Assembly (NCBI GenBank): GCA_964428315.1
Contig: CAYRXT010000003.1
Coordinates: 4,151 to 68,150, forward strand
Direction of reading: 5' to 3'
Origin: an uncultured Planctomycetales bacterium
GTDB lineage: Bacteria > Omnitrophota > Gorgyraeia > Zapsychrales > CAYRXT01
Length of the DNA: 64,000 nucleotides
Part shown: positions 1 to 51,466 of the stretch, in pieces
Layout of the letters: each line of letters begins with the position of its first letter
How positions within the stretch are numbered: the stretch's first letter is position 1
The notes under the pieces: generated by a model
Databases searched by the model: none
The model's input: only the letters and a program-made list of their open reading frames with translations
What the model was told of the DNA's origin: nothing
Translations under genes and position numbers: made by a program

Positions 1-647
1 TAGGAAACCATCTTAAGCATGGTCGGCATATAACTCTGTTCAAAAATCCAGAGTCCATCGTCATCGAGAATGTCACCCACCTCACTCATAAAGGACATCG
101 GCGCCTCCAGGTCATAAAACATGGCGATAGATGTCACGATCTTGGCCTTTTTTTGACCGAAATGTTTTTGGAACGTCTTTTCCGAAAAGAAATCGGAGAT
201 AAGCTCAATGTGCGGAGGATAATATTTTTTGAACTTTTTTCCGGCGGGGTCGATGCCGACCAACCGTCCCCCTTGCGGATAGGCCTTAAGAAGTGTGCCG
301 TCATTGCTGCCGATGTCGAGTATGATGTCCTGATCCGTAACGCTCACCTGGTCGCGGATCCTGTCCACGATTCCCTGCAGATGGCACACCATGGACTGAT
401 TAAGAGACGAGCGATAGCCGTAGTGATCGCCGTAAAGTTCCGAAGCCGGGTAAGAATGGCGAAGCTGCAAAAGTCCGCAGACCTCCTTGTGAGTCTCCCG
501 GCATTTCACAAGTTCAAGCGGACCGACGGTCAAAAGATAATCCTTTTTTCTTGGAAAAATCCCTGTCAGGGCGTGTTGGCCGAGGTCAATAACGGTATCC
601 AGCTGTGTATTGCCGCAAATCCGGCAACGGCTGATGGCTTTAATCAT
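1..647 (-). CDS. SAM-dependent sugar C-methyltransferase (TylCIII/NDP-hexose C-methyltransferase family), N-terminal part only; C-terminus runs off the window start
   Basis: Hand translation of the minus strand from ATG at 645-647 gives MIKAISRCRICGNTQLDTVIDLGQ...DIGSNDGTLLKAYP...: the N-terminal Cys-x2-Cys zinc-ribbon plus class I methyltransferase core typical of sugar C-methyltransferases. No stop codon before position 1. Paralogous to 28456..29709. Confidence 0.6.
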   Translation of the reverse strand, partial: MIKAISRCRICGNTQLDTVIDLGQHALTGIFPRKKDYLLTVGPLELVKCRETHKEVCGLLQLRHSYPASELYGDHYGYRSSLNQSMVCHLQGIVDRIRDQVSVTDQDIILDIGSNDGTLLKAYPQGGRLVGIDPAGKKFKKYYPPHIELISDFFSEKTFQKHFGQKKAKIVTSIAMFYDLEAPMSFMSEVGDILDDDGLWIFEQSYMPTMLKMVS

Positions 648-653
648 GAAGAT

Positions 654-2402: not shown

Positions 2403-2439
2403 GATTACCTGATTCTCATCACCAGCGTCAAACAGATGT

Positions 2440-8519: not shown

Positions 8520-8523
<4 letters not shown>

Positions 8524-22363: not shown

Positions 22364-23372
22364 CTTCCGCAAAAGCGCCCCGCGCGTGCGCAGCCCTGTA
22401 TTTCTGGTACTGTTTCTCTTCGGCGACCAAACGCGCGATCAACTCTGAGAAAGAGAGGCGATAATCCCAGCGAAGCTGTTTCTTCGCTTTCGAAGGGTCA
22501 CCGCAAATGGCCTCGATGTCGGAAGGCCGAAAGAGCCCCTCATCAATAATGACATGCTCCCGCCAGTGCAGGTCGAGTTCGGCGAAGACCTTCTCGATAA
22601 AGGAGCGCAGGCTGTGCATATCGCTGGTCGCGATGATATAGTCGTCCGGCCTCCTCTGCTGAAGCATCAGCCACATCGCCCTGACGTAATCCGGCGCGTA
22701 TCCCCAGTCCCGCTTGACATAAATATTGCCCAAGGTCAACTTTTCATTGCTTCCGTTTTTAATGCGAATAGCCGTCGAAAGGATCTTCTTCGTCACAAAG
22801 TGGCTTTTGCGCAGCACGGATTCATGGTTAAACAGGATCCCGCAGCAGCTGAACAGACCGAAGGCCTCGCGGTAATTGATGGTCGTCCAGTGACAGGCGG
22901 CCTTGGAGATCGCGTAGGGGCTTACCGGATGAAGGACCGCGTCCTCCGCGACCGGAAGGTCTTTGACATGGCCGAACATCTCACTGGTTGAGGCCTGATA
23001 AAACCGTGTTTTTAAAGACAGACTGCGGACCGATTCCAGCAGATGCAGGGTGCTGGACAGATTGAAGGCCATGGTCATCCGGGGATGGGCGAAAGAAAAC
23101 CCCACGGAACTCTGGGCCGCGAGATGATATATTTCTTCCGGCCGGCTGTCATTTAACAAATTTTTCACCGCGTCGCTGTTTAATAGATCCAGACGGATCA
23201 AGCGCACCTTATCGCGGATGCCGAGGTAGTCCAGACCGGAAAGGTCCGTATCCTTATCGGCACGGATGACGCCTGTCACCTCGTAACCTTTATTCAGGAG
23301 AAACCGGGCAAGGTAACAGCCGTCTTGACCGTTTATTCCTGTGATCAAAGACTTTTTCGGATTGTGATCCAT
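22353..23372 (-). CDS. GDP-mannose 4,6-dehydratase paralog (Gmd-like NDP-sugar 4,6-dehydratase)
   Basis: SLITGINGQDGCYLARFLLNKGYEVTGVIR, FNHES, and Gmd-like length (339 aa) when started at the ATG 23370-23372, which overlaps the upstream stop by 1 nt. The ORF-track 63-aa N-terminal extension is Arg/Gly-rich junk. Confidence 0.7.
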   Translation of the reverse strand: MDHNPKKSLITGINGQDGCYLARFLLNKGYEVTGVIRADKDTDLSGLDYLGIRDKVRLIRLDLLNSDAVKNLLNDSRPEEIYHLAAQSSVGFSFAHPRMTMAFNLSSTLHLLESVRSLSLKTRFYQASTSEMFGHVKDLPVAEDAVLHPVSPYAISKAACHWTTINYREAFGLFSCCGILFNHESVLRKSHFVTKKILSTAIRIKNGSNEKLTLGNIYVKRDWGYAPDYVRAMWLMLQQRRPDDYIIATSDMHSLRSFIEKVFAELDLHWREHVIIDEGLFRPSDIEAICGDPSKAKKQLRWDYRLSFSELIARLVAEEKQYQKYRAAHARGAFAEDER

Positions 23373-24484
23373 TATGTCGATCTTTCTGTCAATACACTTT
23401 TGTAGACATCCAGCGTCTTTCTGGCTGTTTTCTCCCAGGAAAACATTTCCACGCGCTTCAGTCCGTCCTTTATCCGCTGTCCCGTCCTCCCTTGCGACCA
23501 CACATCGTCCAAGGCCCGGCGCAAGGCCTCGGCATCCCGTGGATCGAAATAATGCGGGCAAGATCCCGCGATCTCTTCGGTGGTAGGAATTCTCGAGGCC
23601 ACAACCGGACAGCCGCAGGCCATCGCCTCCAAAAGCGGAATACCGAACCCCTCGTACAAAGACGGGTAAACAAAGGCCTCGGCCTGATTATACAACTCGC
23701 ATAATTTCTCATCGTCGATATAGGACAGGCGCTTAACGGTTTTATCCAGCCCTGACTCCCGGACCTTTCTGTTTTCTTCCCGCGACCAGGGCGGCCCCAC
23801 GGCCACGAGATCATAATCCTCCTTTTTCGACCACCGCGAAAAGGCCTTCAACAACAGATCGAAATTCTTGTAATGCACGCGGCTGCCGACATAAAGCAGA
23901 AACGGCCTTTGTGGCCTTTCAATGTCTTCTTTAGGGCGAAAGGTTTCCGCCGCAGCCAGGTGCACCACATAAGTTTTTTCCGGCGCGACATCATGAAACC
24001 GGATGAGATCCCTGCGGGTCGTCTCCGAGATACAGATCACCGCCTCCGCGCACTTGATACATCTTTTTTTGCACAGACGGAAGGCCCCGTTGTCCCTGCC
24101 AGGCAATAACTCGGGGAACCATTCATGGATCAAATCGGCCACCGTCAGGACAACAGGCAGGGACCGGCCCTGCGGCAAGGTATAATAGGTCGAATGCCAT
24201 ATTTGCCCGGGCGTTGTTTTTATAATCCAGGGGAACAATACCCTTCTCGCCAAGAATCTCACTCCCCGCCGGAGAAACCGATTCCCGCCTGAAAAGGACA
24301 GCAACTCTCGACGGGCGATGCGCGCGTGGGCGGGCAGATCTTCTCCGGGGACACCTTGGGACAAAAGCGTCACGCGAATATCCGGCTCGACCGAGCACAA
24401 CCGCGGGAGGGTCTCGTGAAATATCCGCGAGATCCCTCCCCTCTTCTGAAGCTCGTATATTATTCCGTCGACAATAAGATCCAT
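23372..24484 (-). CDS. GT4 (group 1) glycosyltransferase
   Basis: GT-B C-terminal domain: ...EGFGIPLLEAMACGCPVVAS... Confidence 0.75.
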   Translation of the reverse strand: MDLIVDGIIYELQKRGGISRIFHETLPRLCSVEPDIRVTLLSQGVPGEDLPAHARIARRELLSFSGGNRFLRRGVRFLARRVLFPWIIKTTPGQIWHSTYYTLPQGRSLPVVLTVADLIHEWFPELLPGRDNGAFRLCKKRCIKCAEAVICISETTRRDLIRFHDVAPEKTYVVHLAAAETFRPKEDIERPQRPFLLYVGSRVHYKNFDLLLKAFSRWSKKEDYDLVAVGPPWSREENRKVRESGLDKTVKRLSYIDDEKLCELYNQAEAFVYPSLYEGFGIPLLEAMACGCPVVASRIPTTEEIAGSCPHYFDPRDAEALRRALDDVWSQGRTGQRIKDGLKRVEMFSWEKTARKTLDVYKSVLTERST

Positions 24485-24488: not shown

Positions 24489-26234
24489 TTAAAGGGTTAT
24501 TTCAATACAGGCCACGGCCCTGGCGGCCGCGGCGAAATCCGCGTCAAATTTTTTTGAAGCATGAACGTCAAAATAACGATTGTCACTGCATTGCGTCACT
24601 TGGCCCGCCTTCCAACCCCCTGGCGTATAAGTGTAATAATTCACAGCCACATGTCCCGAACCAAAAACCTCAATAATTCTGCGGATCATCACCTCATCAA
24701 ATTGCTGCAGCCAGGAGAGGTTTTCATAACGCCCGTAAGGGACTGTTAAAAAAACCCTCCCCCCCTTCCTGACGAGACGACGGAGTTCCTTAACAGCGAT
24801 AAGATAATCCTGCGGTCTGGCTTCGCAAAATCGTTCGTCATTTGTATAAACGCGAACGTTATCCATACCGATATGCTCAAGTGTTGACAGGCAAACAATC
24901 TCGTCAAAGGCTTCATCCTCAAACCCCGTCTTTCTTAAGTCACCGCGTACGTATGATAGATCCTTGCGGTCGATACGCCGCTCCTTTGTCAGGTTAAAAA
25001 CAACAATCCTTTTTTTAAGCAATATTTCATTTTCCAGTAGATAAGAATAGTTGAGGACGGCCCCGGCATCCAAAAGCCGGGCCGGGCCACGGTCAAGTCG
25101 AGAAAAAAGCCATGGATATTCAACAATCCTTTCATCCACTCTAAGCCCGAAACCGTCTGGAAGGGACATCCCGGCCCTGAAATTTTCCAGTAATAACGGA
25201 TCTCTCAATACCCGGCTGATAGATCGCTCCTTATATTCCCGATAACCAAACGACCAAGGTCGCTTTCCATGCAGATAAAAATACGCAATCCTCAAGCTAT
25301 GAACGCCCGATCGCAAAATGCCTTTGTTCCATTTTCTGAATCTTCCGCAGGACATCATTTTCATGAAGCATCTCTGTTTGTCCCTTAGGACCCAATATAT
25401 ACGTCGCATCAAAAACAAAATATAGTAATATAACGATATCAAGGACAGCTTGATTTTTTTCCAAATTTTCACAGACATGCGAAAAATAATTTTCTGTAAC
25501 CATAACTCCCTTATTAAGTAAGGAAAATAAACATGGGGGTTCTGTTTTAGGCACTGCGCCTTGGCATTGGCCTTGAAATTTGCCGAAGCACCACCCCAGC
25601 GCTTATGCAGTTGAACTTCATTAATTATAAAAAACTCACCCAACAGGCTTAAATGGGCCAAGAAGAGATGGTCGCAGGTCAATATCTGCTTGAGCGGCAA
25701 TACCTTTTTAAGAATGTCCCTTTTGTGAAGACCATAGAAAATGCCGTTCAAACACGATCCGTTCTGTAAATAGGAAAGATACATGGCGAATCGCCTCTCT
25801 GGAGACTGACCGACAGTATTAATGCCACGATCCAAGATGAGCCTCTCGCCGCTAACCGCATTAAATCCTTCCGTGTATGTCCCCACTGAAACGATACCGT
25901 TTGAATAACCAAAGGCCGCCAAACATCGGCTGATGTAGTTCCTGCCCCGCCAGTCATCGTGCGCGGACCACATAAAGTATTTGCCATCCGCAAGATCAAA
26001 GACCCTGTTAAAATTCCAAGCCGAGCCCCTGTTCTTTTCCTCCCGGACATAGCGGATGCGATAGTCTGATTCAGCCAATCGACGGCAAATCTCAGGCGTC
26101 TTATCACGCGAGCCATTGTCAGAGATAATAATTTCAAAATCCTGATAATCCTGAGCCAATAGCGATTTTACTGCATTTTCGAGATGTGCTTCTCCATTAT
26201 AGACGGGTAATCCTATGGCAACATTCATCTCCAT
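24489..26234 (-). CDS. bifunctional GT2 glycosyltransferase (N-terminal) / class I SAM-methyltransferase (C-terminal)
   Basis: N-terminus VAIGLPVYNGEAHL...IISDNGSRDKT. C-terminus ...LDAGAVLNYSYL...DEIVCLSTLEHIG...GGRVFLTVPYG, a Methyltransf_11-like motif. Confidence 0.65.
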   Translation of the reverse strand: MEMNVAIGLPVYNGEAHLENAVKSLLAQDYQDFEIIISDNGSRDKTPEICRRLAESDYRIRYVREEKNRGSAWNFNRVFDLADGKYFMWSAHDDWRGRNYISRCLAAFGYSNGIVSVGTYTEGFNAVSGERLILDRGINTVGQSPERRFAMYLSYLQNGSCLNGIFYGLHKRDILKKVLPLKQILTCDHLFLAHLSLLGEFFIINEVQLHKRWGGASANFKANAKAQCLKQNPHVYFPYLIRELWLQKIIFRMSVKIWKKIKLSLISLYYYILFLMRRIYWVLRDKQRCFMKMMSCGRFRKWNKGILRSGVHSLRIAYFYLHGKRPWSFGYREYKERSISRVLRDPLLLENFRAGMSLPDGFGLRVDERIVEYPWLFSRLDRGPARLLDAGAVLNYSYLLENEILLKKRIVVFNLTKERRIDRKDLSYVRGDLRKTGFEDEAFDEIVCLSTLEHIGMDNVRVYTNDERFCEARPQDYLIAVKELRRLVRKGGRVFLTVPYGRYENLSWLQQFDEVMIRRIIEVFGSGHVAVNYYTYTPGGWKAGQVTQCSDNRYFDVHASKKFDADFAAAARAVACIEITL

Positions 26235-26245
26235 TACAAATTCCT

Positions 26246-27010
26246 TTATTTTCTCTTCAACCAGGCATCCGGCCAATGGGTGACATTCTTCCGCAAATTG
26301 CTTTCATTAAACAGCCAATCTGGCTGTTCAAGAATAAACTCAGGATGGCAAGCTAAAAATTCATTAACCGCCTCTACAGGGTTGCCGTTAGACAAATACA
26401 TGCAGCCTCTCGGCGTGTCCTTGAGGTCACGGATTATACCATCTGTCGCAACGATATAAGACCCCGGACTGACCAGAGAATTATAGGCCTGCAATTCCTT
26501 AAAAACATGTTCCTTTCCATGGAATGAGTCGAGGAAGACAATCGCCCGTTCGTTAGATGTAATTTCTTTTTTGACGGACTCGACAGTGCCGGGATCAATC
26601 GAATCGCCTTCGATCAATGTGATTAAGGATGACAATTCATGAGACTCGATGGCCCGCCGGTTGTGAGGCCGGATTGCGATGTCGATTCCAATGACACGGC
26701 CGCAACCCATCAACCTGCATAAGCTTGCGAAGAATATCAGAGACCCGCCATGGGCGACACCCGTCTCAACGATCACGTCGGGTCGAAGACGATAAATCAC
26801 CTCCTGAACGCGGATTAAATCTTCTGGCAATTGAATGACTGGCCGTCCAAGCCAAGTGAAGGTGTATGTGTACTTTTCATTCCAACAGATTTTCAGCCAT
26901 TCTTGTGAAATGATTTCAAAAGCCTCGCGGGAATAGAGCGGGATTTCTTTTAAAGCATTACGCTCCTGAATTGACAGGATGCGCCGTTTCGTATCAATGA
27001 CGAATTTCAT
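26246..27010 (-). CDS. CmcI/cephalosporin-hydroxylase-family class I methyltransferase (sugar O-methyltransferase-like)
   Basis: MKFVIDTKRRILSIQERN...VIETGVAHGGSLIFFA...IGIDI. Start moved to the ATG 27008-27010. Confidence 0.65.
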   Translation of the reverse strand: MKFVIDTKRRILSIQERNALKEIPLYSREAFEIISQEWLKICWNEKYTYTFTWLGRPVIQLPEDLIRVQEVIYRLRPDVIVETGVAHGGSLIFFASLCRLMGCGRVIGIDIAIRPHNRRAIESHELSSLITLIEGDSIDPGTVESVKKEITSNERAIVFLDSFHGKEHVFKELQAYNSLVSPGSYIVATDGIIRDLKDTPRGCMYLSNGNPVEAVNEFLACHPEFILEQPDWLFNESNLRKNVTHWPDAWLKRK

Positions 27011-27929
27011 GTCTTTCTCCGAATCGCGTAACTTTCCACCACTGAATCGTTTCCTTGAGTGCATTTTCAAGCGTGAAATGAGGCCTCCACCCGACCTCAT
27101 GATTCAGTCGGTGTGTATCCCCAACACAAATGGCCGGTCTCTGCTCATGGCCTTCTCCCTCAGGTAACAATAGGCAATCCTCGGCGTGCATTAGGTTCGC
27201 AAGTTGTTGAAGAATGTCGCGCAACACAATTGATTCTCCAGAGGCAATATTAACCGCCCCTTCGATATCTGCGGAAAAAAGATGAATAAATGCATCAGCA
27301 ACATCTTTAACGTACAGAAAATCCATTTGCGAACCGGCTGAGCGGCATCGAAAGATTTTCTTTTGTAAAAGAGCACAAATAGCGGAAGGGATCAATCGCT
27401 GCGCATTTTCATGTGGCCCGAAAGTAAAAAAGATATGTCCCCACGCTCCGCTCAGGGACTTCTTTCGGCAAAAATCATCGAAATATCGGTGAAAAGCCCT
27501 TTTTGCTTGACCATAAGCCGATATCGGCATCAGCGGCGTTTCACCTTCAACTTTCGGCCCTGTCGCATCTGCATCATACTCCGCGCATGTTCCGGCAACA
27601 ACGACCCGCTGCCCCCCTCGCTTCTGGAACTCTCTAAGGAGATGACAGCTGGCATCAAACCAGCGTTCATTCTCCGGTGACTGCCAGTATTCCCCCGGTT
27701 TAGTCATCCAAGCGAAATGAAACAGACTGTCGGGTTTGATCCGTTGACATAATTTTCCTACGGCAGAATTATCCAACAAATCCAATTTGTAGAGGTGCAA
27801 ATTTTCTCCGCGAAAAAATGCGTCCGTATATGTTAACGCGTGAATTTCATATTCTCTTTTGGCTTGAAGCAAACCCAAGACTTGCCGCCCAATAAAACCA
27901 TTAGCACCTGAGATTAAAACTCTATTCAT
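26994..27929 (-). CDS. NAD(P)-dependent extended SDR, NDP-4-keto-6-deoxyhexose reductase-like
   Basis: VLISGANGFIGRQV, YGQAK. Lies between the epimerase and the O-methyltransferase in the CDP-hexose branch. Confidence 0.6.
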   Translation of the reverse strand: MNRVLISGANGFIGRQVLGLLQAKREYEIHALTYTDAFFRGENLHLYKLDLLDNSAVGKLCQRIKPDSLFHFAWMTKPGEYWQSPENERWFDASCHLLREFQKRGGQRVVVAGTCAEYDADATGPKVEGETPLMPISAYGQAKRAFHRYFDDFCRKKSLSGAWGHIFFTFGPHENAQRLIPSAICALLQKKIFRCRSAGSQMDFLYVKDVADAFIHLFSADIEGAVNIASGESIVLRDILQQLANLMHAEDCLLLPEGEGHEQRPAICVGDTHRLNHEVGWRPHFTLENALKETIQWWKVTRFGERHEIRH

Positions 27930-28459
27930 TACTTAAAATCAGGAAAGTCCCTGTCTCTCTGTGATAGAATGCGGTTTTTACAATCCGGCCATTCAATTTG
28001 AAATGCCGGATCATCCCAACGAACGCCCGCGGCCGATGCAGGATGGAATGGCCGCGACATCTGATACAAGACTTCACACCCCTCACACAGCGTCTGAAAA
28101 CCATGAGCCACGCCTTCAGGGATATATAGCATTGTTCGTTTCTCTGCGGATAACTCTAACCCGATCCAATTCCTGAAGGTCGGTGATGCCTGGCGCAGGT
28201 CTAACGCTACGTCATAAATGCAACCAGCCGTGCAGCGCACGACCTTCGCTTCCTCATACGGCTTCCGTTGGTAATGCATACCGCGCAATGTTCCCGTCTT
28301 CTTGTTAAATGAAATGCTGATTTGCTGAATGCAAGGATTAAGCCCTGCCTTACGGAATTCTTCACGGCAAAATATCCTTGCGAAAAAACCCCTCTCATCG
28401 CCCTTCGATTCAATCTCGATGACAAAAACTCCCAACACTTTTGTCTGAATAAATTTCAA
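27929..28459 (-). CDS. NDP-4-keto-6-deoxyhexose 3,5-epimerase (RmlC/cupin family), TTG start
   Basis: ...ERGFFARIF...HYQRK...YIPEGVAHGF... is the RmlC fold. There is no in-frame ATG near the conserved N-terminus. TTG 28457-28459 is preceded by GGAG at -8 and overlaps the upstream stop (TTGA). The ORF-track GTG at 28555 gives a 32-aa non-homologous extension. Confidence 0.6.
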   Translation of the reverse strand: MKFIQTKVLGVFVIEIESKGDERGFFARIFCREEFRKAGLNPCIQQISISFNKKTGTLRGMHYQRKPYEEAKVVRCTAGCIYDVALDLRQASPTFRNWIGLELSAEKRTMLYIPEGVAHGFQTLCEGCEVLYQMSRPFHPASAAGVRWDDPAFQIEWPDCKNRILSQRDRDFPDFK

Positions 28460-29709
28460 GGGATAATCTCCAAAACGGGAATAGGAACCACAAACTGCGC
28501 CTTCCACTCTCTTATATAATGCAGCTGATCCATGATTTCCTCTTTGATGTTCCACGGCAAAATAAATATGTAGTCAGGTTTTTCCGCGATTATTTCATCG
28601 GGAGAAACAATGGGAATATGACTTCCCGGCATGTATCGTCCCTGCTTATACGGATTGCGGTCGGCTATAAAAACAATGTCTCGTGCACTGACTTGGCAGT
28701 AGTTAAGCAGGGTGTTACCTTTCGCCGCCGCGCCGTAACCGGCTATGGTCTTCCTTTGCTGCCCAGCCCATCTCAAAAATGAAACAACTTCATTTTTCAC
28801 GCGGCATACTTCTTTTTGAAAATGCTGGTAATAATCCAGGGTTTGCATGCCGGCCTCTTCTTCTTTGCGCAATAATACAGACACGTATGGGCGAACCGGA
28901 TGAACACCCCTCCCTTCATGCTGGACAAATACCCTCAGAGATCCGCCATGTGTAGGGATCTCCTCAACATCAAAAACCTCAAGACGATGTTTCTCAAAGG
29001 CCTCTTTAACCGTAAAGAAAGAAAAATAAGAAAAGTGCTCATGATAAATGGTATCAAACTGCACTTGCTCTACCAGCCGGAACAAATGAGGGAATTCCAT
29101 GGTGATAATGCCGGAATCCTTCAACAGAATCCTCATTCCTTCGAGAAAATTATTTAGTTCGGGAACATGAGCCAAGACATTATTTCCGATAATCAAGTCC
29201 GCCTTTTTATTTTTCTGTACAAGCTTTTCAGCCAGACTAACGCCGAAAAACTCAATCTCAGTCGGTATACCTTTTTCCCTCGCGCAGAGGGCCACGTTGG
29301 CAGCCGGTTCAATTCCAAGCACTTCAAATACTTTGCGGTTGAAAAACTGTAACAGATATCCGTCATTGCTGGCAACCTCAATAACACGACTCCCAGGTAA
29401 GAATGAAAACCGCCGTGTGACATCTTCCACGTAAGAGCGAATATGTTCCAGCCAATATTGCGAGTAGGACGAGAAATAGGCGTAGTCGGAAAATATTTTA
29501 TCCGGAGCCTGAAAAACCGGAAGTTGAGCCAAAAAACATTTTTCGCAAAGAAATACATCTAACGGATAGACGGCCTCTGTCGAACAAACGTCCGAATCTT
29601 TCAAAAAGGCGTTCGACAAAGGCATCTTTCCCAGCCTGACGAAATAAGTCTCTACGCGTGATCCGCATAACCGACAATGCGGCATTTCAATATTGACACA
29701 GTCTTTCAT
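28456..29709 (-). CDS. NDP-hexose C-methyltransferase (TylCIII-like; Zn-ribbon plus class I MTase plus C-terminal C-MeTrfase domain)
   Basis: ...MPHCRLCGSR...LCEKCFLAQL... N-terminal 4-Cys ribbon, VIEVASNDGYLL methyltransferase core, 417 aa. The alternative start M9 (ATG 29685) would remove the overlap with rfbG. Confidence 0.75.
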   Translation of the reverse strand: MKDCVNIEMPHCRLCGSRVETYFVRLGKMPLSNAFLKDSDVCSTEAVYPLDVFLCEKCFLAQLPVFQAPDKIFSDYAYFSSYSQYWLEHIRSYVEDVTRRFSFLPGSRVIEVASNDGYLLQFFNRKVFEVLGIEPAANVALCAREKGIPTEIEFFGVSLAEKLVQKNKKADLIIGNNVLAHVPELNNFLEGMRILLKDSGIITMEFPHLFRLVEQVQFDTIYHEHFSYFSFFTVKEAFEKHRLEVFDVEEIPTHGGSLRVFVQHEGRGVHPVRPYVSVLLRKEEEAGMQTLDYYQHFQKEVCRVKNEVVSFLRWAGQQRKTIAGYGAAAKGNTLLNYCQVSARDIVFIADRNPYKQGRYMPGSHIPIVSPDEIIAEKPDYIFILPWNIKEEIMDQLHYIREWKAQFVVPIPVLEIIP

Positions 29710-30772
29710 AATCGTTTATTTGCCTATAGATCAAACCAAGAACATCTTCCCCGGCGTAAAATGCCTTGTACAATTCAATGGTCTTTTGCAAAGCTGTCTC
29801 GACAGACCAGCGTGCGCGGACTGCAAGATTTTTTTCAGCCTTTGAGCAGTCTAAACCAAGAAAACCGGCTTCATGCGGTTTTTCTCCGCTTTCAAATTCC
29901 CAAGATGCCTCGCTGCCCCAAAGTTCGACAACGCGCTCAACAATCCATCGCACCTGTTTTAGTTCTGATTTTCCTGGTCCAAAGTTCCAAGCACCGCAAG
30001 ATTTCTGAAAACGGTTATATAAAACCATACCCAATTTCAGATAGCCATAAAGCGGTTCCACGACATGCTGCCACGGACGCACCGCATCGGGATAACGGAT
30101 TCTCACCGGCCGGCCGTTCGTCAAAGCCCGTATGCAATCGGGCAAAAGCCGCTCTTTCGCCCAATCGCAACCGCCGATCACATTGCCCGCCCTGGCTGAG
30201 GCCAAAAATATTTTCTTATCTGGAGAATGCCAATAAGATCGGTTATAGGCTTGAACAACAAACTCCGCCGAGGCCTTCGAATTACTGTAAGGATCATGAC
30301 CGCCGAGGCGGTCATCCTCCACGAAGAATTGTTCTCCTTCTTTTTGTTCATAGCATTTATCGCTAGTTAAAACGACAATGGCCCTCACCGAACCTATGCC
30401 GCGACATGCCTCCAAGACATGGGCCGTTCCCATCACATTTGTCGAAAATGTTTCAACCGGAGAAAGATAGGATTCCCGGACCAAAGACTGTGCCGCGGCA
30501 TGAAAAACCATCTCCGGCCTTTCTTCGGAAACGAATTTGCATACAGCCGAAAAATCGCGGATATCACCGGTCTTTGAACTCATTTTCCCCTCCAAACCGG
30601 CCGCCTTGAATAGACTGGGTTCTGTCGGGGGAGGTAGGGCATATCCAATGACTTTGGCTCCCATGCGTTGCAACCATAAACTTAACCATGCCCCTTTGAA
30701 ACCTGTATGGCCTGTAACGATGACTTTTTTATTCTTGTAAAAAGAATGCAATTTCACTCCCAAATTTTCCAT
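29687..30772 (-). CDS. rfbG: CDP-glucose 4,6-dehydratase
   Basis: VIVTGHTGFKGAWLSLWL, TSDKCYE, PYSNSKASAE are the RfbG/DdhB signatures. Confidence 0.85.
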   Translation of the reverse strand: MENLGVKLHSFYKNKKVIVTGHTGFKGAWLSLWLQRMGAKVIGYALPPPTEPSLFKAAGLEGKMSSKTGDIRDFSAVCKFVSEERPEMVFHAAAQSLVRESYLSPVETFSTNVMGTAHVLEACRGIGSVRAIVVLTSDKCYEQKEGEQFFVEDDRLGGHDPYSNSKASAEFVVQAYNRSYWHSPDKKIFLASARAGNVIGGCDWAKERLLPDCIRALTNGRPVRIRYPDAVRPWQHVVEPLYGYLKLGMVLYNRFQKSCGAWNFGPGKSELKQVRWIVERVVELWGSEASWEFESGEKPHEAGFLGLDCSKAEKNLAVRARWSVETALQKTIELYKAFYAGEDVLGLIYRQINDYERLCQY

Positions 30773-31533
30773 CTGGCTTCACCCTGATTCCATAAACGGT
30801 TGAGATATTCCATGTCGCGCAAGGTGTCCATGCATGACCAAAATCCTTTATGGATGTAGGCCATTAACTGTCTTTGCTTAGCGACCTCTTCCAGGGCTCC
30901 AATCTCCAGATCGCATGAATCTTCATCTTTCAAAAAATTAAATATTTCCCGGCTAAACACAAAAAACCCGCCGTTAATTAAACCATTGCCTTCTTTCGGT
31001 TTTTCCGAAAAACTCAAGACCTCTTGATTCTTCGTTTTAAGTTCACCAAAACGCGATGCCGGGTTAATGCCTGTCAAGGTCGCAACTTTTCCGTGCGATC
31101 GATGGAAGGCCAACAACTCCGGAATATTAACATCTGCGACTCCGTCGCCATAGGTCATCAAGAAGACATCGTCAGAGATATATTTTTTCACCCGATACAA
31201 ACGCGCGCCTTTTAAGGCCCCCTTTCCGGTATCAACGAGTGTGACCCTCCACCCCGCCTGGCGATGCTTGCTGTGGATCTGAATTCTCTTCTTTGATCCC
31301 AGTTCAATTGAAAAATCATTGTTGATCAATTCATAATTATAAAAATACTCTTTGATTATTTCACCCTTATATCCCAAACATAGAATAAAATCCTTGTAAT
31401 CGTAATGGGCGAAGAGATTCATGATATGGTTAAGAATAGGCTTGCCTCCGATTTCCAACATCGGCTTGGGACGAAACTCTGTTTCCTCCCTTAACCGGCT
31501 CCCCAATCCTCCGCATAGAATCACAACTTTCAT
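30754..31533 (-). CDS. rfbF: glucose-1-phosphate cytidylyltransferase
   Basis: MKVVILCGGLGSRLREETEFRPKPMLEIGGKPIL..., 259 aa, RfbF/DdhA-like. Confidence 0.85.
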   Translation of the reverse strand: MKVVILCGGLGSRLREETEFRPKPMLEIGGKPILNHIMNLFAHYDYKDFILCLGYKGEIIKEYFYNYELINNDFSIELGSKKRIQIHSKHRQAGWRVTLVDTGKGALKGARLYRVKKYISDDVFLMTYGDGVADVNIPELLAFHRSHGKVATLTGINPASRFGELKTKNQEVLSFSEKPKEGNGLINGGFFVFSREIFNFLKDEDSCDLEIGALEEVAKQRQLMAYIHKGFWSCMDTLRDMEYLNRLWNQGEARWKIWE

Positions 31534-31597: not shown

Positions 31598-33190
31598 TCA
31601 ACCTCTCCATTTACTGTCCCCCCTAGAATGACCGTACGCCATAGAATTCCTTCTACCGGGCAAACATGTCAATCGGCTGAAATTATTTTTGCCGACGTCC
31701 TCCACGTACTGTAAAAACTGGTTCTGTATGAGGGTTTTCTGTTGATGATAGGCCGCTAAAATCCGCCCGGGATAGACGGCTTTTAACTGCTCATTGTCCC
31801 TGGATTCGGCGAACGTCAAGGCCGGTCCCGCAGCAAAGGGCACGGTGGTATATTTCAGCATGTACAGATAACAAAACTTGGCCCGCAACCGCTGTTCGGT
31901 GCTCAGCCTGCGAGGAATAAACCCTTTCAAGACGGAAAAGTATTCTTCTTTGGTCCGGGGCTCTATGTTGAATCCGAGCCCGCTGAACGACGCCTCTCCC
32001 GCCAGAAGCGCGGGGATCCCCCGCAGGGCAGGCATCTCGACCCCCGGAGAGCCCAGGCAGGTCACGATCATGTCGGCCACATTCAAAACGGTCAAGGGCG
32101 TGATATCACTGTCACACGGCGCATAACGGACATGTCCCGGAGCCGTGCTCATGATTTGATTCATGTCAATGTCATGCGCAGGGTAATAAACATTGGCGGG
32201 ATGCTCCTTGAAAATCCAGTTCTTCGAAGTGTCTTTCACAGCAAACTCCAAGGTCTGCCTGAACCAGTCATAATAATCCCGGAAAATCATCCATTCAAAA
32301 TGTGAGTGGGGAAAATCGTTAAAACAATGGAGCATGACAAAGACAATCGGCCGGTGTTCCATTCCCATTTTTTTGAAAAACTCTTCTCGATTTTGTTGCT
32401 CGGGAATCTCATTATCCTCCTCCACCGGAAAGGCCCCCAGGAAGGGATTATTGGCCTGGCATATCATGTCCCGGAACTCTTCTTCTATTGTCCGGCTGAA
32501 ATTATTGACAGCGTGCTCCATTTCCTCAAAAGAGGGCTTCAAAGGATACTTGTAAACGTCCGGAAGGCCTTTGAATAACGATAGACAAATGATTCCATGG
32601 CCTCCTCCTTTCCAGTAAGCAGGGATGTTGTTCTGCAAGGCCACGCGCACAAGGGCCCCTTTATTGACCCCGACGTAGTGGGCCGTCAGGATGGCCTTGA
32701 TGTTCTCCGTTTTCAGCAGTCTTCTCGCCTGGAAGTCGCGGAAAAGCAGAGAATAGAATACAACGACCAACCGCGGATCGAAGCGGTGCAGTGTCGCGTA
32801 ACAGTAACGCGCCAGGTATCCGTCGTAAACACAATCCCCGTAAACAATCCCTTTATACCGGAAACTCAGAATCCGGTCGGAGAATACCGCGTAAGCCAAA
32901 TAAAAATAAAGCGCCCGCGAGAGAAACCCGAAAACCAGCCAAAGAGAGGGGCGCTCCCGGCGGATGAAAAGCGAGTTTCGTGAATAACTCCGCATCAGGG
33001 CCTCATCCGTGAAGTCTTCTTTCAGCCAGCCGATACGGTAATGTTTCGCGCGGGCCACAATCTTTGCCGCCACCGCGTTTGAATGGTTTATCAACACATT
33101 ATCCGAGGTCTCGACCAGAAGAACGGCGTCCTTTCCTGATTCGGGATAAGAGGCCCAAAATCGTCTGTTAGCGTCAATAAACTCAGTCAT
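31598..33190 (-). CDS. Capsule_synth (KpsS/KpsC/LpsZ-like) family protein, putative nonulosonic-acid/Kdo-type transferase
   Basis: ...PIVFVMLHCFNDFPH...NWIFKEHPANVYY... resembles the KpsS/KpsC ...Q..ND...KHHP core. Paralog of 39276..40895. Start set at M26, where the paralog alignment begins; the ORF track extends to 33265. Confidence 0.4.
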   Translation of the reverse strand: MTEFIDANRRFWASYPESGKDAVLLVETSDNVLINHSNAVAAKIVARAKHYRIGWLKEDFTDEALMRSYSRNSLFIRRERPSLWLVFGFLSRALYFYLAYAVFSDRILSFRYKGIVYGDCVYDGYLARYCYATLHRFDPRLVVVFYSLLFRDFQARRLLKTENIKAILTAHYVGVNKGALVRVALQNNIPAYWKGGGHGIICLSLFKGLPDVYKYPLKPSFEEMEHAVNNFSRTIEEEFRDMICQANNPFLGAFPVEEDNEIPEQQNREEFFKKMGMEHRPIVFVMLHCFNDFPHSHFEWMIFRDYYDWFRQTLEFAVKDTSKNWIFKEHPANVYYPAHDIDMNQIMSTAPGHVRYAPCDSDITPLTVLNVADMIVTCLGSPGVEMPALRGIPALLAGEASFSGLGFNIEPRTKEEYFSVLKGFIPRRLSTEQRLRAKFCYLYMLKYTTVPFAAGPALTFAESRDNEQLKAVYPGRILAAYHQQKTLIQNQFLQYVEDVGKNNFSRLTCLPGRRNSMAYGHSRGDSKWRG

Positions 33191-33234
33191 CTCATTGTGC
33201 GCCTTGAACGGACGACCTCCGGCCCCGTTCCGCC

Positions 33235-34140
33235 TTACATCTGGTCGTGTTGCGGTCTCAGCCATATTCCCTCTTCTGCATCTGTGCGCTCAAAGGTTTC
33301 CGGATCATACCGGCCGCGGCGCATCCGGCGCTGTTTGAGGCGTTCGCTGGGAGAAGGCGTCTTCTCTCCTGAACCCAGGGCTCCTTCAAGCGACCGGATT
33401 GTCCCGACCATCGAGCGGAACTCTTCCATGGTCATGGAGAAACCGTGATCCGGCCCCGGACCGCCCCTCTCGAAGGTGACATGCTTTTCGATGCAAGTCC
33501 CGCCCAAGGCGACCGCCGAGACGGGGACAAGATCCCCCGGCGTATGGTCCGAGATTCCGACCGGCAGGCCAAAAGTCTCTTTGAGCGTCAGCACGGCCCG
33601 CAGGTTCATCTCGTCAAACTTCGGCGGATACTGGCTGACGCAATGCAGAAGCGTAATATCTCCGGCGCCGGCCTCACGCAGCGTATCGAGAGCGTTCCGT
33701 ATGTCGTCCAGGCCGCTCGCGCCGGTCGACAGGATCACCTTTTTCTGTGTCCTTCCGACCGCCTCCAGGAGCGGCGAAAACGTGATATCACCCGCCGCGA
33801 TCTTGTAGGTTTTGACCCCCACCCGCTCCAGCAGGTCCACGGCCTTCAGAAAAAAAGGCGTCGAGATGAATTCGATGCCCGTCTGGTCGGCCGTCTTCTT
33901 CAGTTCGAAATGCCACTCCTCAGGCAGTTCGAGGCTGGAAAACTGACTGTACACCGGGTTACGCTTCCTTTCCCCGCCTTCCCAGACGAACGGCGCCACA
34001 AGTTTTTCCTTTTTCAGCGTCTGAAACTTGACCGCATCAGCCCCGGCCTCCTTGGCCGCGACGACATAAGCCTTTGCCTTTGAAAGATCGCCGTCATAAT
34101 TCGATCCCACCTCCGCAATGATCCGGACATGCTGTTTCAC
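33235..34140 (-). CDS. pseI: N-acylneuraminate/pseudaminic acid synthase family (NeuB/PseI-like), short C-terminus
   Basis: RIIAEVGSNYDGDLSKAKAYVVAAKEAGADAVKFQT is the NeuB TIM-barrel N-terminus. The C-terminal SAF/AFP-like domain looks truncated (ends ...GIWLRPQHDQM). Confidence 0.7.
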   Translation of the reverse strand: MKQHVRIIAEVGSNYDGDLSKAKAYVVAAKEAGADAVKFQTLKKEKLVAPFVWEGGERKRNPVYSQFSSLELPEEWHFELKKTADQTGIEFISTPFFLKAVDLLERVGVKTYKIAAGDITFSPLLEAVGRTQKKVILSTGASGLDDIRNALDTLREAGAGDITLLHCVSQYPPKFDEMNLRAVLTLKETFGLPVGISDHTPGDLVPVSAVALGGTCIEKHVTFERGGPGPDHGFSMTMEEFRSMVGTIRSLEGALGSGEKTPSPSERLKQRRMRRGRYDPETFERTDAEEGIWLRPQHDQM

Positions 34141-35189
34141 TGTTTGACTCCGCTTAGCGTCCCGATAAGGAGATCGCTCACACAGCCGGTTCCGTTCCCG
34201 TCGACCAATTGCCTCCCTCTCGCCGACATGGCCCGCCTGCGCTGTCCGTTATTCAGCAGGGACTTAACGGTGCGGACAATCTTCCGGCCGTCCAGCTGTT
34301 CGACGGCTCCAAGATAGACGGCGGTACCCATAGCGTGCCAGGCCTCGCAATTCGGTTTCTGATTGCCGGCGATTTGAATGATACAGGCGGGAACACCCAG
34401 GGCCGCGGCCTCGAACGACGTTATTCCCCCGGCGATCAAGGCCAGATCCGCGTCCGCCATGCATTCGGCCACGTCCGGCGTATCGATAAGAATCCGAACC
34501 CTCAATTCCGGATGCCTTTTCACCCATAACTCGACGGCTTCCCTTCCGGGATTGAGAGAACTCAAAAGGACAACGTATTCCATGCGGGTTTCCAGGGAAC
34601 TGAGGGCCTCTAAACATAAAAGGGCGGCTCCCCGGTCATCACCTCCTCCGAAGGTCAGAAGAATGCGTTCCGGCTTCCGCCGGCATGCGTACCGTGTCCT
34701 GGCCGCGGCGAATTCCGGACGAAGGAGGGCGTATTGCGGACCGACCAGCAACCGCGTTTCCCTTCTTCGCAGATACGGCCGGTAATCCTGTTCACTGAAT
34801 ACGGGACTGGCGTTGAAGACCCAGTCAGCCCAAAGGTCCTTGTGGGGTCTTCCGTCGAACTGCAGCCATCTCACCCCGGCCGAAAGAAGTTCCATTTGAT
34901 AGTCCGCGTCCGTGCGGTAATGGTCGACAACGGCCGCATCGATGTCCCATGTCCGAAAAAGCCCGGCCAGCCTTTGCGCATCTTCGAAAGGGTCTGTCCG
35001 CCAATCCATATGTTCCCACTGCCGCACGGTTTCGGCAAGGAGGCCTTCCAGCGCCATGTCCTCATCGCGGCACAAAAAGAATATCCCGGCGCCGTTGCGC
35101 CGGAGTTCACCGGCGAGCGCGAGACAGCGCCGCAAATGTCCTGTGCCCAGGGATGGAGAAACATCACAACGGAAAAGGAATCGTTTCAT
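34137..35189 (-). CDS. pseG: UDP-2,4-diacetamido-2,4,6-trideoxy-beta-L-altropyranose hydrolase (PseG-like, MurG-type GT-B)
   Basis: MKRFLFRCDVSPSLGTGHLRRCLALAGEL is the PseG N-terminal signature. About 350 aa. Confidence 0.65.
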   Translation of the reverse strand: MKRFLFRCDVSPSLGTGHLRRCLALAGELRRNGAGIFFLCRDEDMALEGLLAETVRQWEHMDWRTDPFEDAQRLAGLFRTWDIDAAVVDHYRTDADYQMELLSAGVRWLQFDGRPHKDLWADWVFNASPVFSEQDYRPYLRRRETRLLVGPQYALLRPEFAAARTRYACRRKPERILLTFGGGDDRGAALLCLEALSSLETRMEYVVLLSSLNPGREAVELWVKRHPELRVRILIDTPDVAECMADADLALIAGGITSFEAAALGVPACIIQIAGNQKPNCEAWHAMGTAVYLGAVEQLDGRKIVRTVKSLLNNGQRRRAMSARGRQLVDGNGTGCVSDLLIGTLSGVKQ

Positions 35190-36088: not shown

Positions 36089-36342
36089 GTCGATGTCTTC
36101 TTGCCAGCCTCGGCCTTAACATACTCCATGATAGCATTCAATGAATTCAGCCTGTCGATGTCATTTTCGGGAATATCAGACAATCCAAATTTTTCCTGAA
36201 CATTCAAAAATAAAGTCATGACATCCAGAGAATCAATGCCGAGTTCACTTAGCCGGCGCTCCCAGTTCGCCTCATCGGCCAGCATGTCCGTTGATACAAA
36301 CTCTCCGACCATTTCCGCAATCTTTTGTTTAATGTCCTGCAT
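36085..36342 (-). CDS. acyl carrier protein (dedicated)
   Basis: 85 aa with ...LGIDSLDVMTL..., where the Ser of DSL is the phosphopantetheine attachment motif. Confidence 0.75.
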   Translation of the reverse strand: MQDIKQKIAEMVGEFVSTDMLADEANWERRLSELGIDSLDVMTLFLNVQEKFGLSDIPENDIDRLNSLNAIMEYVKAEAGKKTST

Positions 36343-36352
36343 AATCCTCTCC

Positions 36353-37887: not shown

Positions 37888-37905
37888 AACCTCCAGATTT
37901 TTGGT

Positions 37906-51464: not shown

Positions 51465-51466
51465 CC

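Follow-up and report, generated by a model that had tools for sequence, protein, structure and literature searches.

A glycan locus of an uncultured bacterium, probably a Candidatus Omnitrophota MAG, raises the question of which sugar its lowest-GC segment would make. The window, by which we mean the whole 64,000-nucleotide stretch of DNA analyzed here, contains a glycan locus of about 58 kb, in which genes for GDP-sugar pathways and for a pathway of the pseudaminic-acid type are present as well. Within it, seven intact, adjacent genes occupy positions 24489-31533 of the minus strand. The first-pass annotation had placed seven open reading frames here and assigned each to a family; all are present, and Pfam or NCBIfam profiles match every one over its full length and agree with the assignments.

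A seven-gene cassette predicted to make a branched, methylated sugar

Read from rfbF, the order of the genes is as follows:

30754..31533, minus strand: RfbF (rfbF/ddhA), glucose-1-phosphate cytidylyltransferase, 259 aa (TIGR02623, PF00483)
29687..30772, minus strand: RfbG, predicted to make CDP-4-keto-6-deoxy-D-glucose (TIGR02622)
28456..29709, minus strand: TylC3/TcaB9-type NDP-hexose C-methyltransferase, 417 aa from the ATG at 29709 (PF08421, PF13489, PF08484)
27929..28459, minus strand: RmlC-type 4-keto-6-deoxyhexose 3,5- (or 5-) epimerase, 176 aa (TIGR01221)
26994..27929, minus strand: extended short-chain dehydrogenase/reductase (SDR), putative 4-ketoreductase, 311 aa (PF01370, 128 bits)
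26246..27010, minus strand: CmcI / rhamnosyl O-methyltransferase family methyltransferase, 254 aa (PF04989, 232 bits)
24489..26234, minus strand: fusion of an N-terminal GT2 glycosyltransferase and a C-terminal class I SAM methyltransferase (GT2-MT), 581 aa (PF00535, PF08241)

We interpret these genes as one operon-like module for a CDP-activated, C-methyl-branched, O-methylated L-series 6-deoxyhexose on a surface glycan, a reading that we hold with a probability of about two in three. RfbF would convert glucose-1-phosphate and CTP to CDP-D-glucose, which RfbG would dehydrate to CDP-4-keto-6-deoxy-D-glucose. From here on we infer the substrate of each enzyme. The C-methyltransferase would use SAM to methylate the carbon beside the 4-keto group, most likely C3; the RmlC-type enzyme would epimerize C5 (and C3 too, if it acts before methylation), leading into the L-series; and the SDR would reduce the 4-keto group. 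The CmcI-family enzyme would then O-methylate a hydroxyl, after which the GT2 domain of the fusion would transfer the sugar and its methyltransferase domain could add a further methyl. The gene content supports the succession proposed by the first-pass annotation, from CDP-4-keto-6-deoxy-D-glucose through C-methylation, epimerization, 4-ketoreduction and O-methylation to transfer. The most likely product of this pathway would be an O-methylated CDP-6-deoxy-3-C-methyl-L-hexose resembling CDP-vinelose, with CDP-6-deoxy-3-C-methyl-2-O-methyl-L-talose (vinelose) or its C4 epimer (2-O-methyl-3-C-methyl-L-rhamnose) expected.

Predicted CDP-sugar entry without 3-deoxygenation

The two entry enzymes are assigned by equivalog matches. 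RfbF scores 343 bits against TIGR02623 (cut-off 300) and covers 255 of 255 profile positions, and RfbG scores 450 bits against TIGR02622 (cut-off 278) as well as 381 and 373 bits against the solved CDP-glucose 4,6-dehydratases 1wvg and 1rkx. The absence of an E1/E3 3-deoxygenation pair, proposed earlier, is borne out. No protein in the window matches the RfbH/E1 equivalog: the two members of the DegT family, at 141 and 189 bits, stay far below its cut-off of 423, and one of them is a PseC equivalog. Likewise, no E3-type reductase domain occurs among the minus-strand open reading frames of at least 150 aa in the window.

The C-methyltransferase

The third enzyme has the full domain set of its family: PF08421 (65 bits), PF13489 and PF08484 (210 bits), the three domains that the first-pass annotation had named for checking this assignment. 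The public gene call, 389 aa from a start at 29625, loses the first CxxC of the zinc ribbon. In the 417-aa form, the zinc-ligand cysteines C12, C15, C55 and C58 are kept along with Y76, H181, Y222, E224 and H225; all are invariant across 17 relatives and are also found in MtmC, KijD1 and SgcA3. The best solved relatives are MtmC (4rv9, 263 bits), KijD1 and TcaB9. RfbF-linked C-methyltransferases form a clade separate from the dTDP-dependent actinomycete enzymes, with 50-58% identity kept across phyla.

This conservation, the retention of all SAM-binding and catalytic residues and the presence of a dedicated SDR in the cassette make it highly improbable that the homolog performs no carbon methylation, acting solely as a ketoreductase or being inactive, and that the product is an O-methylated but unbranched CDP-6-deoxy-L-hexose. 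Such a role would have some precedent in MtmC, the closest solved relative, for which an additional 4-ketoreductase activity has been reported (S. argillaceus work as cited in PMC3539893).

The site of carbon methylation is a separate matter. Analogy with TylCIII implies C3, which the sequence itself cannot establish. Our enzyme is 36% identical to MtmC, 32% to KijD1 and 37% to the C-methyltransferase of the C-1027 cluster on plasmid SGLP1, which we take to be SgcA3, a proposed C5 methyltransferase. Because it is as near to SgcA3 as to the C3 enzymes, and SgcA3 and MtmC are themselves 49.5% identical, similarity cannot separate C3 from C5 methylation, nor can the C4 configuration be read from the sequence. 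A C5 enzyme would yield a noviose-type product, a CDP-linked 5-C-methyl (gem-dimethyl) 6-deoxy-L-hexose that is O-methylated afterwards. The set of 4,6-dehydratase, RmlC-like enzyme, TylC3-family C-methyltransferase, 4-ketoreductase and O-methyltransferase would also fit that route, and the RmlC-like protein is nearer to full 3,5-epimerases than to 5-epimerases such as EvaD. However, we regard methylation at C5 as quite unlikely: the solved relatives are all 3-C-methyltransferases, 5-C-methyl hexoses are to our knowledge confined to actinomycete antibiotics, and vinelose, the one CDP-linked C-methyl sugar that we know of, is a 3-C-methyl sugar. In addition, bacterial polysaccharides are documented to contain 3-C-methyl 6-deoxyhexoses (PMC7203242 and its references; PMC3539893). 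For the favored C3 methylation, the reported effect of TylC3 on the C3 hydroxyl is inversion (PMC3539893); together with 5-epimerization, this would point to the L-talo/L-manno series.

A second gene of this family lies at the start of the window:

1..647, minus strand: divergent C-methyltransferase-family gene, N-terminal 215 aa, cut by the window edge (PF08421, 53 bits; PF13489)

It is 26% identical to the first, in keeping with its earlier description as truncated and divergent.

Recurrence in other genomes

At least 600 species-level genomes from many phyla encode a close relative of the C-methyltransferase, and we surveyed the neighborhoods of 81 loci that contain such a gene. In 73 of the 81, the neighbors include either a true RfbF (48 loci) or an RfbF-like paralog (25 loci), on the same strand as the C-methyltransferase in 72 of the 73 and at a median distance of 1.6 kb. 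RfbF, RfbG and RmlC all accompany it in 19 of the 81, and a CmcI homolog adjoins in 10 of these 19. The complete set, including the same SDR type, is found in deltaproteobacterial (L014), acidobacterial (L027) and gammaproteobacterial (L039) MAGs. L014 and L039 share the window's order from RfbF through RfbG, the C-methyltransferase, RmlC and the SDR to CmcI, whereas L027 has RmlC ahead of the C-methyltransferase. Accordingly, the earlier statement that CDP-activated branched-chain sugars are very rare holds for characterized chemistry but not for genomes.

The rfbF-rfbG-(rfbC)-C-methyltransferase core is annotated on a Brachyspira hyodysenteriae plasmid and had already been annotated in Synechocystis PCC 6803 (PMC3769361, PMC12285223) and S. 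meliloti (PMC4053727). In Synechocystis, the RmlC homolog of this operon is dispensable for rhamnose (PMC12285223), which fits a different product of that operon.

Predicted epimerization, reduction, O-methylation and transfer

The RmlC-like protein (longest open reading frame to 28555, probable start 28459) scores 168 bits against TIGR01221 (cut-off 156) and 136-139 bits against solved RmlCs, and it keeps the His, Lys, Tyr and Asp aligned with H63, K73, Y133 and D170 of 1dzr. The SDR has both expected motifs, GANGFIG (GxxGxxG) and YGQAK (YxxxK). It matched no equivalog in the NCBIfam profile search, and its nearest solved relatives, UDP-xylose synthase and GDP-4-keto-6-deoxymannose reductase, reach only 61-68 bits; gene context suggests that it is the 4-ketoreductase. 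The CmcI-like enzyme (longest open reading frame to 27100, probable start 27010) has CmcI as its sole solved relative and falls below the mycobacterial rhamnosyl O-methyltransferase equivalog NF045824 (72 bits, cut-off 400). We infer that it is a sugar O-methyltransferase; the vinelose precedent and the mycobacterial rhamnosyl 2-O-methyltransferase in the same Pfam family suggest position 2.

The fusion protein (longest open reading frame to 26276, probable start 26234) has PF00535 (residues 22-139) and PF08241 (residues 434-509), and an AF2 model of its C-terminal 303 aa (pLDDT 90) shows a generic class I methyltransferase fold. Its gene matches the six sugar genes in low GC. The search recovered only about 8 homologs spanning the full length; in other cases, the halves are encoded separately. 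The fusion is a candidate for transferring the new sugar and for a second methylation, although GT2-MT fusions in loci L085 and L086, which lack CDP genes, indicate that it is not strictly tied to this sugar.

This arrangement bears on when O-methylation would occur. CDP-vinelose was isolated as a nucleotide with its 2-O-methyl group already on, and the CmcI-like gene of L014 and L039 continues the row of sugar-synthesis genes, both of which argue for methylation before transfer. A tentative but serious alternative is that the nucleotide sugar is C- but not O-methylated. Methylation by the CmcI-like enzyme and by the fusion's methyltransferase domain would then follow transfer and take place on the lipid-linked or polymerized glycan, perhaps at other residues or as a cap that terminates the chain. 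The rhamnosyl O-methyltransferase for which PF04989 is named acts on a glycolipid rather than a nucleotide sugar. Furthermore, CmcI-like and GT2 genes are tightly linked, the former directly preceding the latter in 5 loci and even being fused to it in the protein P0272; the glycosyltransferase of the cassette itself carries a second, fused methyltransferase; and L087 has CmcI-like and GT2-MT genes with no CDP-sugar genes on that contig.

Composition and borders of the cassette

The cassette was also said to be AT-richer than the 2-24 kb portion of the locus, consistent with horizontal acquisition. Indeed, its GC content is 0.458, compared to 0.546 for positions 2000-24488 and 0.536 for the other genes, and its GC3 is 0.475, compared to 0.649 +/- 0.071 in the other 48 genes (Mann-Whitney p = 4e-7). 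It is the lowest-GC 7 kb in the window, with 0.35% of same-length sliding windows equally GC-poor, and the GC steps are sharp and coincide with both gene borders. The flanking genes are of normal GC:

31598..33265, minus strand: 555-aa soluble protein without a Pfam family, upstream flank at the 5' border
23372..24484, minus strand: GT4 glycosyltransferase, GC 0.545, downstream flank (PF00534, PF13439)

Profile searches yield no family for the 555-aa protein, which has one weak hydrophobic segment. Synteny was found with just two loci, L085 and L086; in both, the gene immediately before GT2-MT encodes a protein of 517-527 aa with 23% identity to the 555-aa protein. The GT4 shares 32-37% identity with its counterpart after GT2-MT in L085, L086 and L087, and belongs to a conserved GT2-MT / GT4 / GT2 backbone. 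In L085 and L086 this backbone, headed by the homolog of the 555-aa protein, occurs without the six sugar-synthesis genes. The absence of these genes and the GC contrast support the proposed acquisition, and the module has the appearance of an insert acquired by a mosaic glycan locus.

Low GC could instead reflect the bias typical of variable surface-glycan genes, or ancient residence; the genes would then have been lost from the syntenic loci. No integrase, transposase, tRNA or flanking repeat was found marking the low-GC block, and a second such block (35186-41027) and further dips occur within the glycan locus. The nearest homologs share just 43-60% identity, too little to name a donor, and the syntenic loci are themselves distant (23-59% identity). 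Nevertheless, we consider these explanations unlikely: the fall in GC3, about 0.17, is limited to exactly these seven functionally linked genes and has sharp borders, the backbone is found without the sugar genes, and equivalent cassettes lie in unrelated settings, namely a Paenibacillus flagellin island and Brachyspira, Sinorhizobium and Mesorhizobium plasmids.

Comparison with known systems

Two known systems frame the prediction. The noviose route (NovT/NovW/NovU/NovS/NovP) uses the same enzyme types as the cassette. CDP-vinelose of Azotobacter vinelandii, described in the 1960s, is a CDP-activated C-methyl, O-methyl 6-deoxyhexose, and it gives a cassette type that is common in genomes an old chemical precedent. 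The predicted product would be like CDP-vinelose in its CDP carrier, its 3-C-methyl branch, its O-methyl group and its 6-deoxy-L-hexose skeleton.

Gene content of the cassette

Seven minus-strand ORFs adjoin or slightly overlap between 24489 and 31533. Profile searches gave every one of them a full-length family match, which bears out the seven-gene cassette described by the first-pass annotation.

Genes of the cassette
30754-31533, minus strand: RfbF; TIGR02623 343 bits over the full length (equivalog cut-off 300)
29687-30772, minus strand: RfbG; TIGR02622 450 bits (equivalog cut-off 278)
28456-29709, minus strand: C-methyltransferase; PF08421, PF13489 and PF08484
27929-28459/28555, minus strand: RmlC-type epimerase; TIGR01221 168 bits (cut-off 156)
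26994-27929, minus strand: extended SDR; GANGFIG and YGQAK motifs
26246-27010/27100, minus strand: CmcI/rhamnosyl-O-methyltransferase family protein; PF04989 232 bits
24489-26234/26276, minus strand: GT2 glycosyltransferase fused to a class I methyltransferase (GT2-MT)

RfbF and RfbG are the CDP-hexose entry enzymes, predicted to be CDP-specific by their equivalog scores. RfbG also matches two solved CDP-glucose 4,6-dehydratases, with 381 bits (1wvg) and 373 bits (1rkx). In the RmlC-like protein, the residues aligned with H63, K73, Y133 and D170 of Salmonella RmlC (1dzr) are all kept. By its score and this catalytic His/Lys/Tyr/Asp set, it belongs with RmlC and is a predicted epimerase.

The CmcI-like protein scores 72 bits on the mycobacterial rhamnosyl O-methyltransferase equivalog NF045824, which has a cut-off of 400, and its sequence places it in the broader Pfam family PF04989 only. 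For both this protein and the SDR, relatives among solved structures are too distant to fix specificity. The C-terminal domain of GT2-MT is predicted with a pLDDT of 90 to adopt a class I methyltransferase fold. The fold is generic: a fold search with this domain returned hundreds of matches, the sugar O-methyltransferases RebM and AtmM among them, and so assigns no specificity.

The third gene encodes a complete C-methyltransferase

Absence of the C-terminal C-methyltransferase domain would have spoken against the proposed role of the third gene. The domain is present: PF08484 scores 210 bits, alongside PF08421 (65 bits) and PF13489 (53 bits), all in excess of their gathering scores. The protein aligns over its full length with the solved enzymes MtmC, KijD1 and TcaB9. 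Translated from the ATG at 29709, the 417-aa protein carries four zinc-ribbon cysteines (C12, C15, C55 and C58) and the active-site set Y76, H181, Y222, E224 and H225. In our alignment, these cysteines and active-site residues are invariant in 17 relatives and common to MtmC, KijD1 and SgcA3. Structural papers on TcaB9 reportedly establish the roles of the residues corresponding to Tyr76, His181, Tyr222, Glu224 and His225 and of the zinc cysteines. The public gene call (P0001, 389 aa) starts at 29625, 28 codons later than 29709, and loses the first zinc-ribbon CxxC. The complete set of zinc ligands needs a start at 29709 or 29685.

Identity to known enzymes is modest: 36% to MtmC and 32% to KijD1, both of which act at C3, and 37% to the C-methyltransferase of the C-1027 cluster, presumably SgcA3, for which action at C5 has been proposed. 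The cassette enzyme is thus equally far from both types, while MtmC shares 49.5% identity with SgcA3. In a small tree, a C3 enzyme and the proposed C5 enzyme group together, apart from the cassette enzyme, which sits in a separate clade with other RfbF-linked enzymes. The window also begins with a second, divergent C-methyltransferase, as had been noticed at first reading; 1-647 holds the N-terminal part of this family member, which is 26% identical to the cassette enzyme.

A predicted route to a branched CDP-sugar

RfbF and RfbG also open the CDP-3,6-dideoxyhexose routes, which continue with the 3-deoxygenation pair E1 and E3. The window's only two DegT-family proteins reach 141 and 189 bits on the E1 (RfbH/DdhC) profile NF011936, against a cut-off of 423, and one of the two is a PseC equivalog. 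For E3 (RfbI/DdhD/AscD), Pfam scans found no ferredoxin-reductase-type domain in any minus-strand window ORF of at least 150 aa. Because the E1/E3 pair is absent, we exclude a 3,6-dideoxyhexose route within the window, in agreement with the earlier statement that this is not an abequose, paratose or tyvelose pathway.

Ordinary dTDP-rhamnose synthesis was also rejected. The block contains no RmlA, RmlB or RmlD, and its entry enzymes are predicted to be CDP-specific. In Synechocystis, a 2025 study found that the homolog slr0985 is not needed for rhamnose and left the product of its operon open, handling slr1610 as a generic methyltransferase (PMC12285223).

The most economical reading, by analogy, is that the cassette would carry out dTDP-L-mycarose chemistry moved onto CDP, without the 2-deoxygenation. 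RfbF and RfbG would make CDP-4-keto-6-deoxy-D-glucose, and the C-methyltransferase would alkylate the enolisable carbon beside the ketone. The RmlC homolog would then invert C5 and the SDR would reduce C4. The CmcI-family enzyme would O-methylate the sugar and the GT2 domain would transfer it, in either order. Methylation by TylC3 is reported to invert the C3 hydroxyl (PMC3539893); since this inversion would be combined with 5-epimerisation, the product is expected to belong to the L-talo or L-manno series. We consider this pathway interpretation well supported in silico.

The cassette lies in a large surface-glycan locus

The window is almost wholly one minus-strand glycan locus. Every inferred gene in 1-58146 lies on the minus strand, and the cumulative GC skew declines almost monotonically across the window. 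Upstream of the cassette, at 33-52 kb, is a pathway of the pseudaminic-acid type for a nonulosonic acid.

Equivalogs of the nonulosonic acid pathway
within 33235-34140 and 44927-52432, minus strand: PseB equivalog; 498 bits
within 33235-34140 and 44927-52432, minus strand: PseC equivalog; 475 bits

The same pathway includes a NeuB/PseI-like synthase that scores below both cut-offs, a second DegT aminotransferase and two CMP-transferase-like genes, one of them fused to a GFO/IDH/MocA oxidoreductase. Between NeuB and rfbF, at 31598-33265, lies a gene for a 555-aa soluble protein without a family. It shows 23% identity to proteins at the same position in two comparison loci from other genomes, L085 and L086, and may be a nonulosonic acid transferase.

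The downstream side of the cassette holds genes of the GDP-mannose dehydratase type, numerous glycosyltransferases and an initiating sugar transferase, as well as three Wzy_C membrane proteins. The three large multi-pass proteins with Wzy_C (O-antigen ligase/polymerase) signatures are encoded at 4321-6387, 8520-9845 and 19105-21534, the third match being weak (20 bits). A second methyltransferase-GT2 fusion is found at the far end of the locus (56746-58146) in reversed domain order, with the methyltransferase N-terminal and GT2 C-terminal. The best named relatives of a flanking transporter belong to Candidatus Omnitrophota MAGs (64-71% identity), which tentatively places the organism in that phylum.

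Composition and origin of the block

The cassette had been described as AT-richer than the 2-24 kb part of the locus. Windowed GC agrees, at 0.458 for the block and 0.546 for 2000-24488, and nowhere else in the window is GC lower over a stretch of this length. The seven genes have a GC of 0.458 and a GC3 of 0.475, compared with 0.536 ± 0.036 and 0.649 ± 0.071 for the other 48 genes (p = 4e-7). The steps in GC fall at 24.5 kb and 31.6 kb, matching the outer gene borders.

Loci L085 and L086, both only distantly related to the window, keep the flanking order: KAS III, ACP, hexapeptide acyltransferase, NeuB, further genes, a 517-527-aa homolog of the 31598-33265 protein, GT2-MT, GT4 and GT2. Both are without the six sugar-synthesis genes. 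The closest homolog of GT2-MT (47%) occurs in a third locus, L087, where the preceding module (203-5777) instead contains radical SAM/SPASM, CmcI-like and E1-dehydrogenase alpha/beta-like genes, an arrangement suggestive of a module for a two-carbon branched sugar at this same site. The position upstream of GT2-MT thus behaves like an exchange site for sugar-tailoring modules, which supports acquisition of the block. Because its best homologs are only 43-60% identical, a donor cannot be named.

The window contains no tRNA, and repeats flanking the block are short and at chance level. Integrase or transposase domains were absent from all ORFs scanned, and scans for promoters and terminators gave nothing above chance. 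In terms of the criteria for a genomic island, the block has deviating composition with sharp borders and its six sugar genes are missing from syntenic loci; signatures of mobility are lacking.

A second low-GC block lies at 35186-41027 (GC3 0.46-0.55). It encodes a hexapeptide acyltransferase, an ACP (about 36.1-36.35 kb), KAS III, a 203-aa unknown, a DUF4910/M28-like protein and a 583-aa unknown. This block is probably another exchangeable module, perhaps one that acylates the nonulosonic acid.

The cassette core is widespread

The first-pass annotation held that CDP-activated branched sugars are very rare. At the genome level, this argument from rarity does not hold. Over 8000 database entries are related to the C-methyltransferase at E < 1e-20, and the enzyme matches at least 600 stretches in a one-genome-per-species (GTDB) collection. 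Among the matches listed are Planctomycetota, Bacteroidota, Cyanobacteria, Nitrospirota, Acidobacteriota, Proteobacteria, Firmicutes and archaea.

We compared 81 loci containing a relative. A true RfbF lies near the C-methyltransferase in 48, with sampled members scoring 363-477 bits on TIGR02623. Another 25 have an RfbF-like paralog beside it (L015, L018, L028, L032, L033, L047, L049, L054, L059, L071, L073, L076 and L079 are among these loci); three that were sampled reach 211-215 bits, below the TIGR02623 cut-off of 300. The RfbF or RfbF-like gene is on the same strand as the C-methyltransferase in 72 of 73 loci, at a median distance of 1.6 kb. RmlC homologs are frequent (66 of 81 loci) and RfbG is found in 22 of 81. 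RfbF, RfbG and RmlC occur together in 19 of the 81 loci, ten of which also have CmcI. Three MAGs of different phyla carry the full set with the same SDR type (L014, L027 and L039), and L014 and L039 share the gene order of the window. There is close coupling between CmcI-like and GT2 genes, and the database protein P0272 is a natural CmcI-GT2 fusion. S. meliloti, Mesorhizobium and Brachyspira hyodysenteriae carry the core on plasmids.

Several loci show other settings or variant gene sets. In Paenibacillus zeisoli (L002, 1548-13194), rfbF, rfbG, the C-methyltransferase, RmlC, an acetyltransferase and an SDR lie between flagellin and flaG/fliD with TPR-GT2 proteins; because of this placement, the set is probably a flagellin glycosylation island. 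On a Mesorhizobium plasmid (L088, 8233-9048), the RfbF-like paralog occurs together with DUF4910 and PIG-L deacetylase genes. A Nitrospira MAG (L012, 5767-14977) has a variant cassette of RfbF, an FAD-dependent oxidoreductase (DAO), an SDR unlike RfbG, the C-methyltransferase and RmlC, continuing with DUF4910/DUF2172/HTH_47, an unknown, an SDR and a GINT1_N-like protein. Judging by these genes, it appears to follow a different route after CDP-glucose. The 32-kb plasmid pZH1261 of Brachyspira hyodysenteriae (L091, 5524-15652) carries rfbF, a radical SAM gene, an RmlC-family gene and a C-methyltransferase with 48% identity to that of the window, along with a DegT aminotransferase, an acetyltransferase, an SDR, a second methyltransferase, radical SAM/SPASM and ATP-grasp. 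This set looks like an elaborate pathway for a CDP-linked branched amino sugar.

The core has been annotated before, as slr0983, slr0984, slr0985 and slr1610 in Synechocystis (PMC3769361) and as SMb21416-SMb21418 in S. meliloti (PMC4053727). Because of its distribution and these published annotations, the cassette type must be considered common and already annotated. A literature search found no paper linking the cassette to a sugar.

A candidate genetic basis for CDP-vinelose-type sugars

CDP-vinelose of Azotobacter vinelandii is CDP-6-deoxy-3-C-methyl-2-O-methyl-L-talose, reportedly described by Okuda, Suzuki and Suzuki (J Biol Chem 1967-68). We know of no genes assigned to vinelose, and our literature search found no paper containing the word. 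This compound gives the predicted product class a precedent. We put at roughly 0.45, somewhat short of even odds, the probability that the missing genes for CDP-vinelose-type sugars are those of a large family of rfbF-linked C-methyltransferase operons, so far unrecognised, to which the cassette would belong.

In that case, CDP-carried, C-methyl-branched and often O-methylated 6-deoxyhexoses would be common yet overlooked in surface glycans. They would occur in LPS, EPS and flagellin glycans throughout numerous bacterial phyla and in some archaea, with the slr0983-slr1610 operon of Synechocystis as an example. Taken alone, the window contributes a further predicted cassette for an unusual sugar, from an uncultured bacterium; it is the comparison that gives the finding wider value. 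The widespread set comprises rfbF, usually rfbG, a distinct C-methyltransferase clade and an RmlC homolog, and is routinely labeled as a "class I SAM-dependent methyltransferase" beside a "dTDP-4-dehydrorhamnose 3,5-epimerase". Linking it to CDP-vinelose would bring long-known chemistry together with its genes and correct misleading rhamnose annotations. It would also predict hydrophobic branched sugars on many cell surfaces, of relevance to immune recognition, to serotyping and to phage receptors. Being compact and collinear, the seven-gene version described here would be convenient for reconstitution in vitro.

Comparison with known systems

Synechocystis PCC 6803, S. meliloti and the 32-kb plasmid of Brachyspira hyodysenteriae share the rfbF-rfbG-(rfbC)-C-methyltransferase core with the window, and the S. 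meliloti enzyme, like that of Brachyspira, is 48% identical to the window C-methyltransferase. However, these loci are without the CmcI-like and GT2-MT genes or have other tailoring genes (aminotransferase, radical SAM).

Published O-antigens include examples with 3-C-methyl 6-deoxyhexoses (PMC7203242, PMC3539893). GDP-virenose (6-deoxy-3-C-methyl-gulose) of Coxiella burnetii resembles the predicted product as a 3-C-methyl 6-deoxyhexose of a Gram-negative surface polysaccharide with a TylCIII-like enzyme, and the same likeness applies to 3-C-methylrhamnose in the O-antigens of Azorhizobium, Phyllobacterium and Burkholderia andropogonis (PMC3539893, PMC3204966, PMC7203242). In those systems, the proposed carrier is GDP (or dTDP) rather than CDP, and no O-methylation is reported.

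The CDP-3,6-dideoxyhexose pathways (ddhABCD/rfbFGHI with abe/prt/tyv; ascarylose) have their first two steps, RfbF and RfbG, in common with the window, whose RfbG scores 373-381 bits against the Salmonella and Yersinia dehydratase structures of these pathways. In place of E1 (RfbH/DdhC) and E3 (RfbI/DdhD), the window has a C-methyltransferase. The noviose (NovT, NovW, NovU, NovS, NovP) and SgcA3 pathways combine a TylC3-family C-methyltransferase, an RmlC-like enzyme and a 4-ketoreductase with an O-methylated product, as predicted here, but their sugars are carried on dTDP, methylation is at C5 (as proposed in the case of SgcA3), and the genes sit in antibiotic clusters of actinomycetes.

In dTDP-L-mycarose synthesis, the chemical parallel we propose, enzymes of the same three families act on a 4-keto-6-deoxyhexose in matching order: the C-3 methyltransferase TylC3/EryBIII, the 5-epimerase TylK/EryBVII and the 4-ketoreductase TylC2/EryBIV. 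Its C-methyltransferase has the three-domain architecture and catalytic residues of the window enzyme. Mycarose, a 2-deoxygenated sugar from the secondary metabolism of actinomycetes, is carried on dTDP, whereas the window has predicted CDP entry enzymes in a surface-glycan locus, no 2,3-dehydratase or 3-ketoreductase genes, and a C-methyltransferase in a separate clade at 32-37% identity.

CDP-vinelose matches the predicted product class itself: a CDP-activated 6-deoxyhexose of the L-series, C-methyl branched and O-methylated. The sugar predicted here may carry its C-methyl group at C3 or C5, may be of the talo or manno type, and may have its O-methyl group at another position; the vinelose producer, A. 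vinelandii, is unrelated to the window organism.
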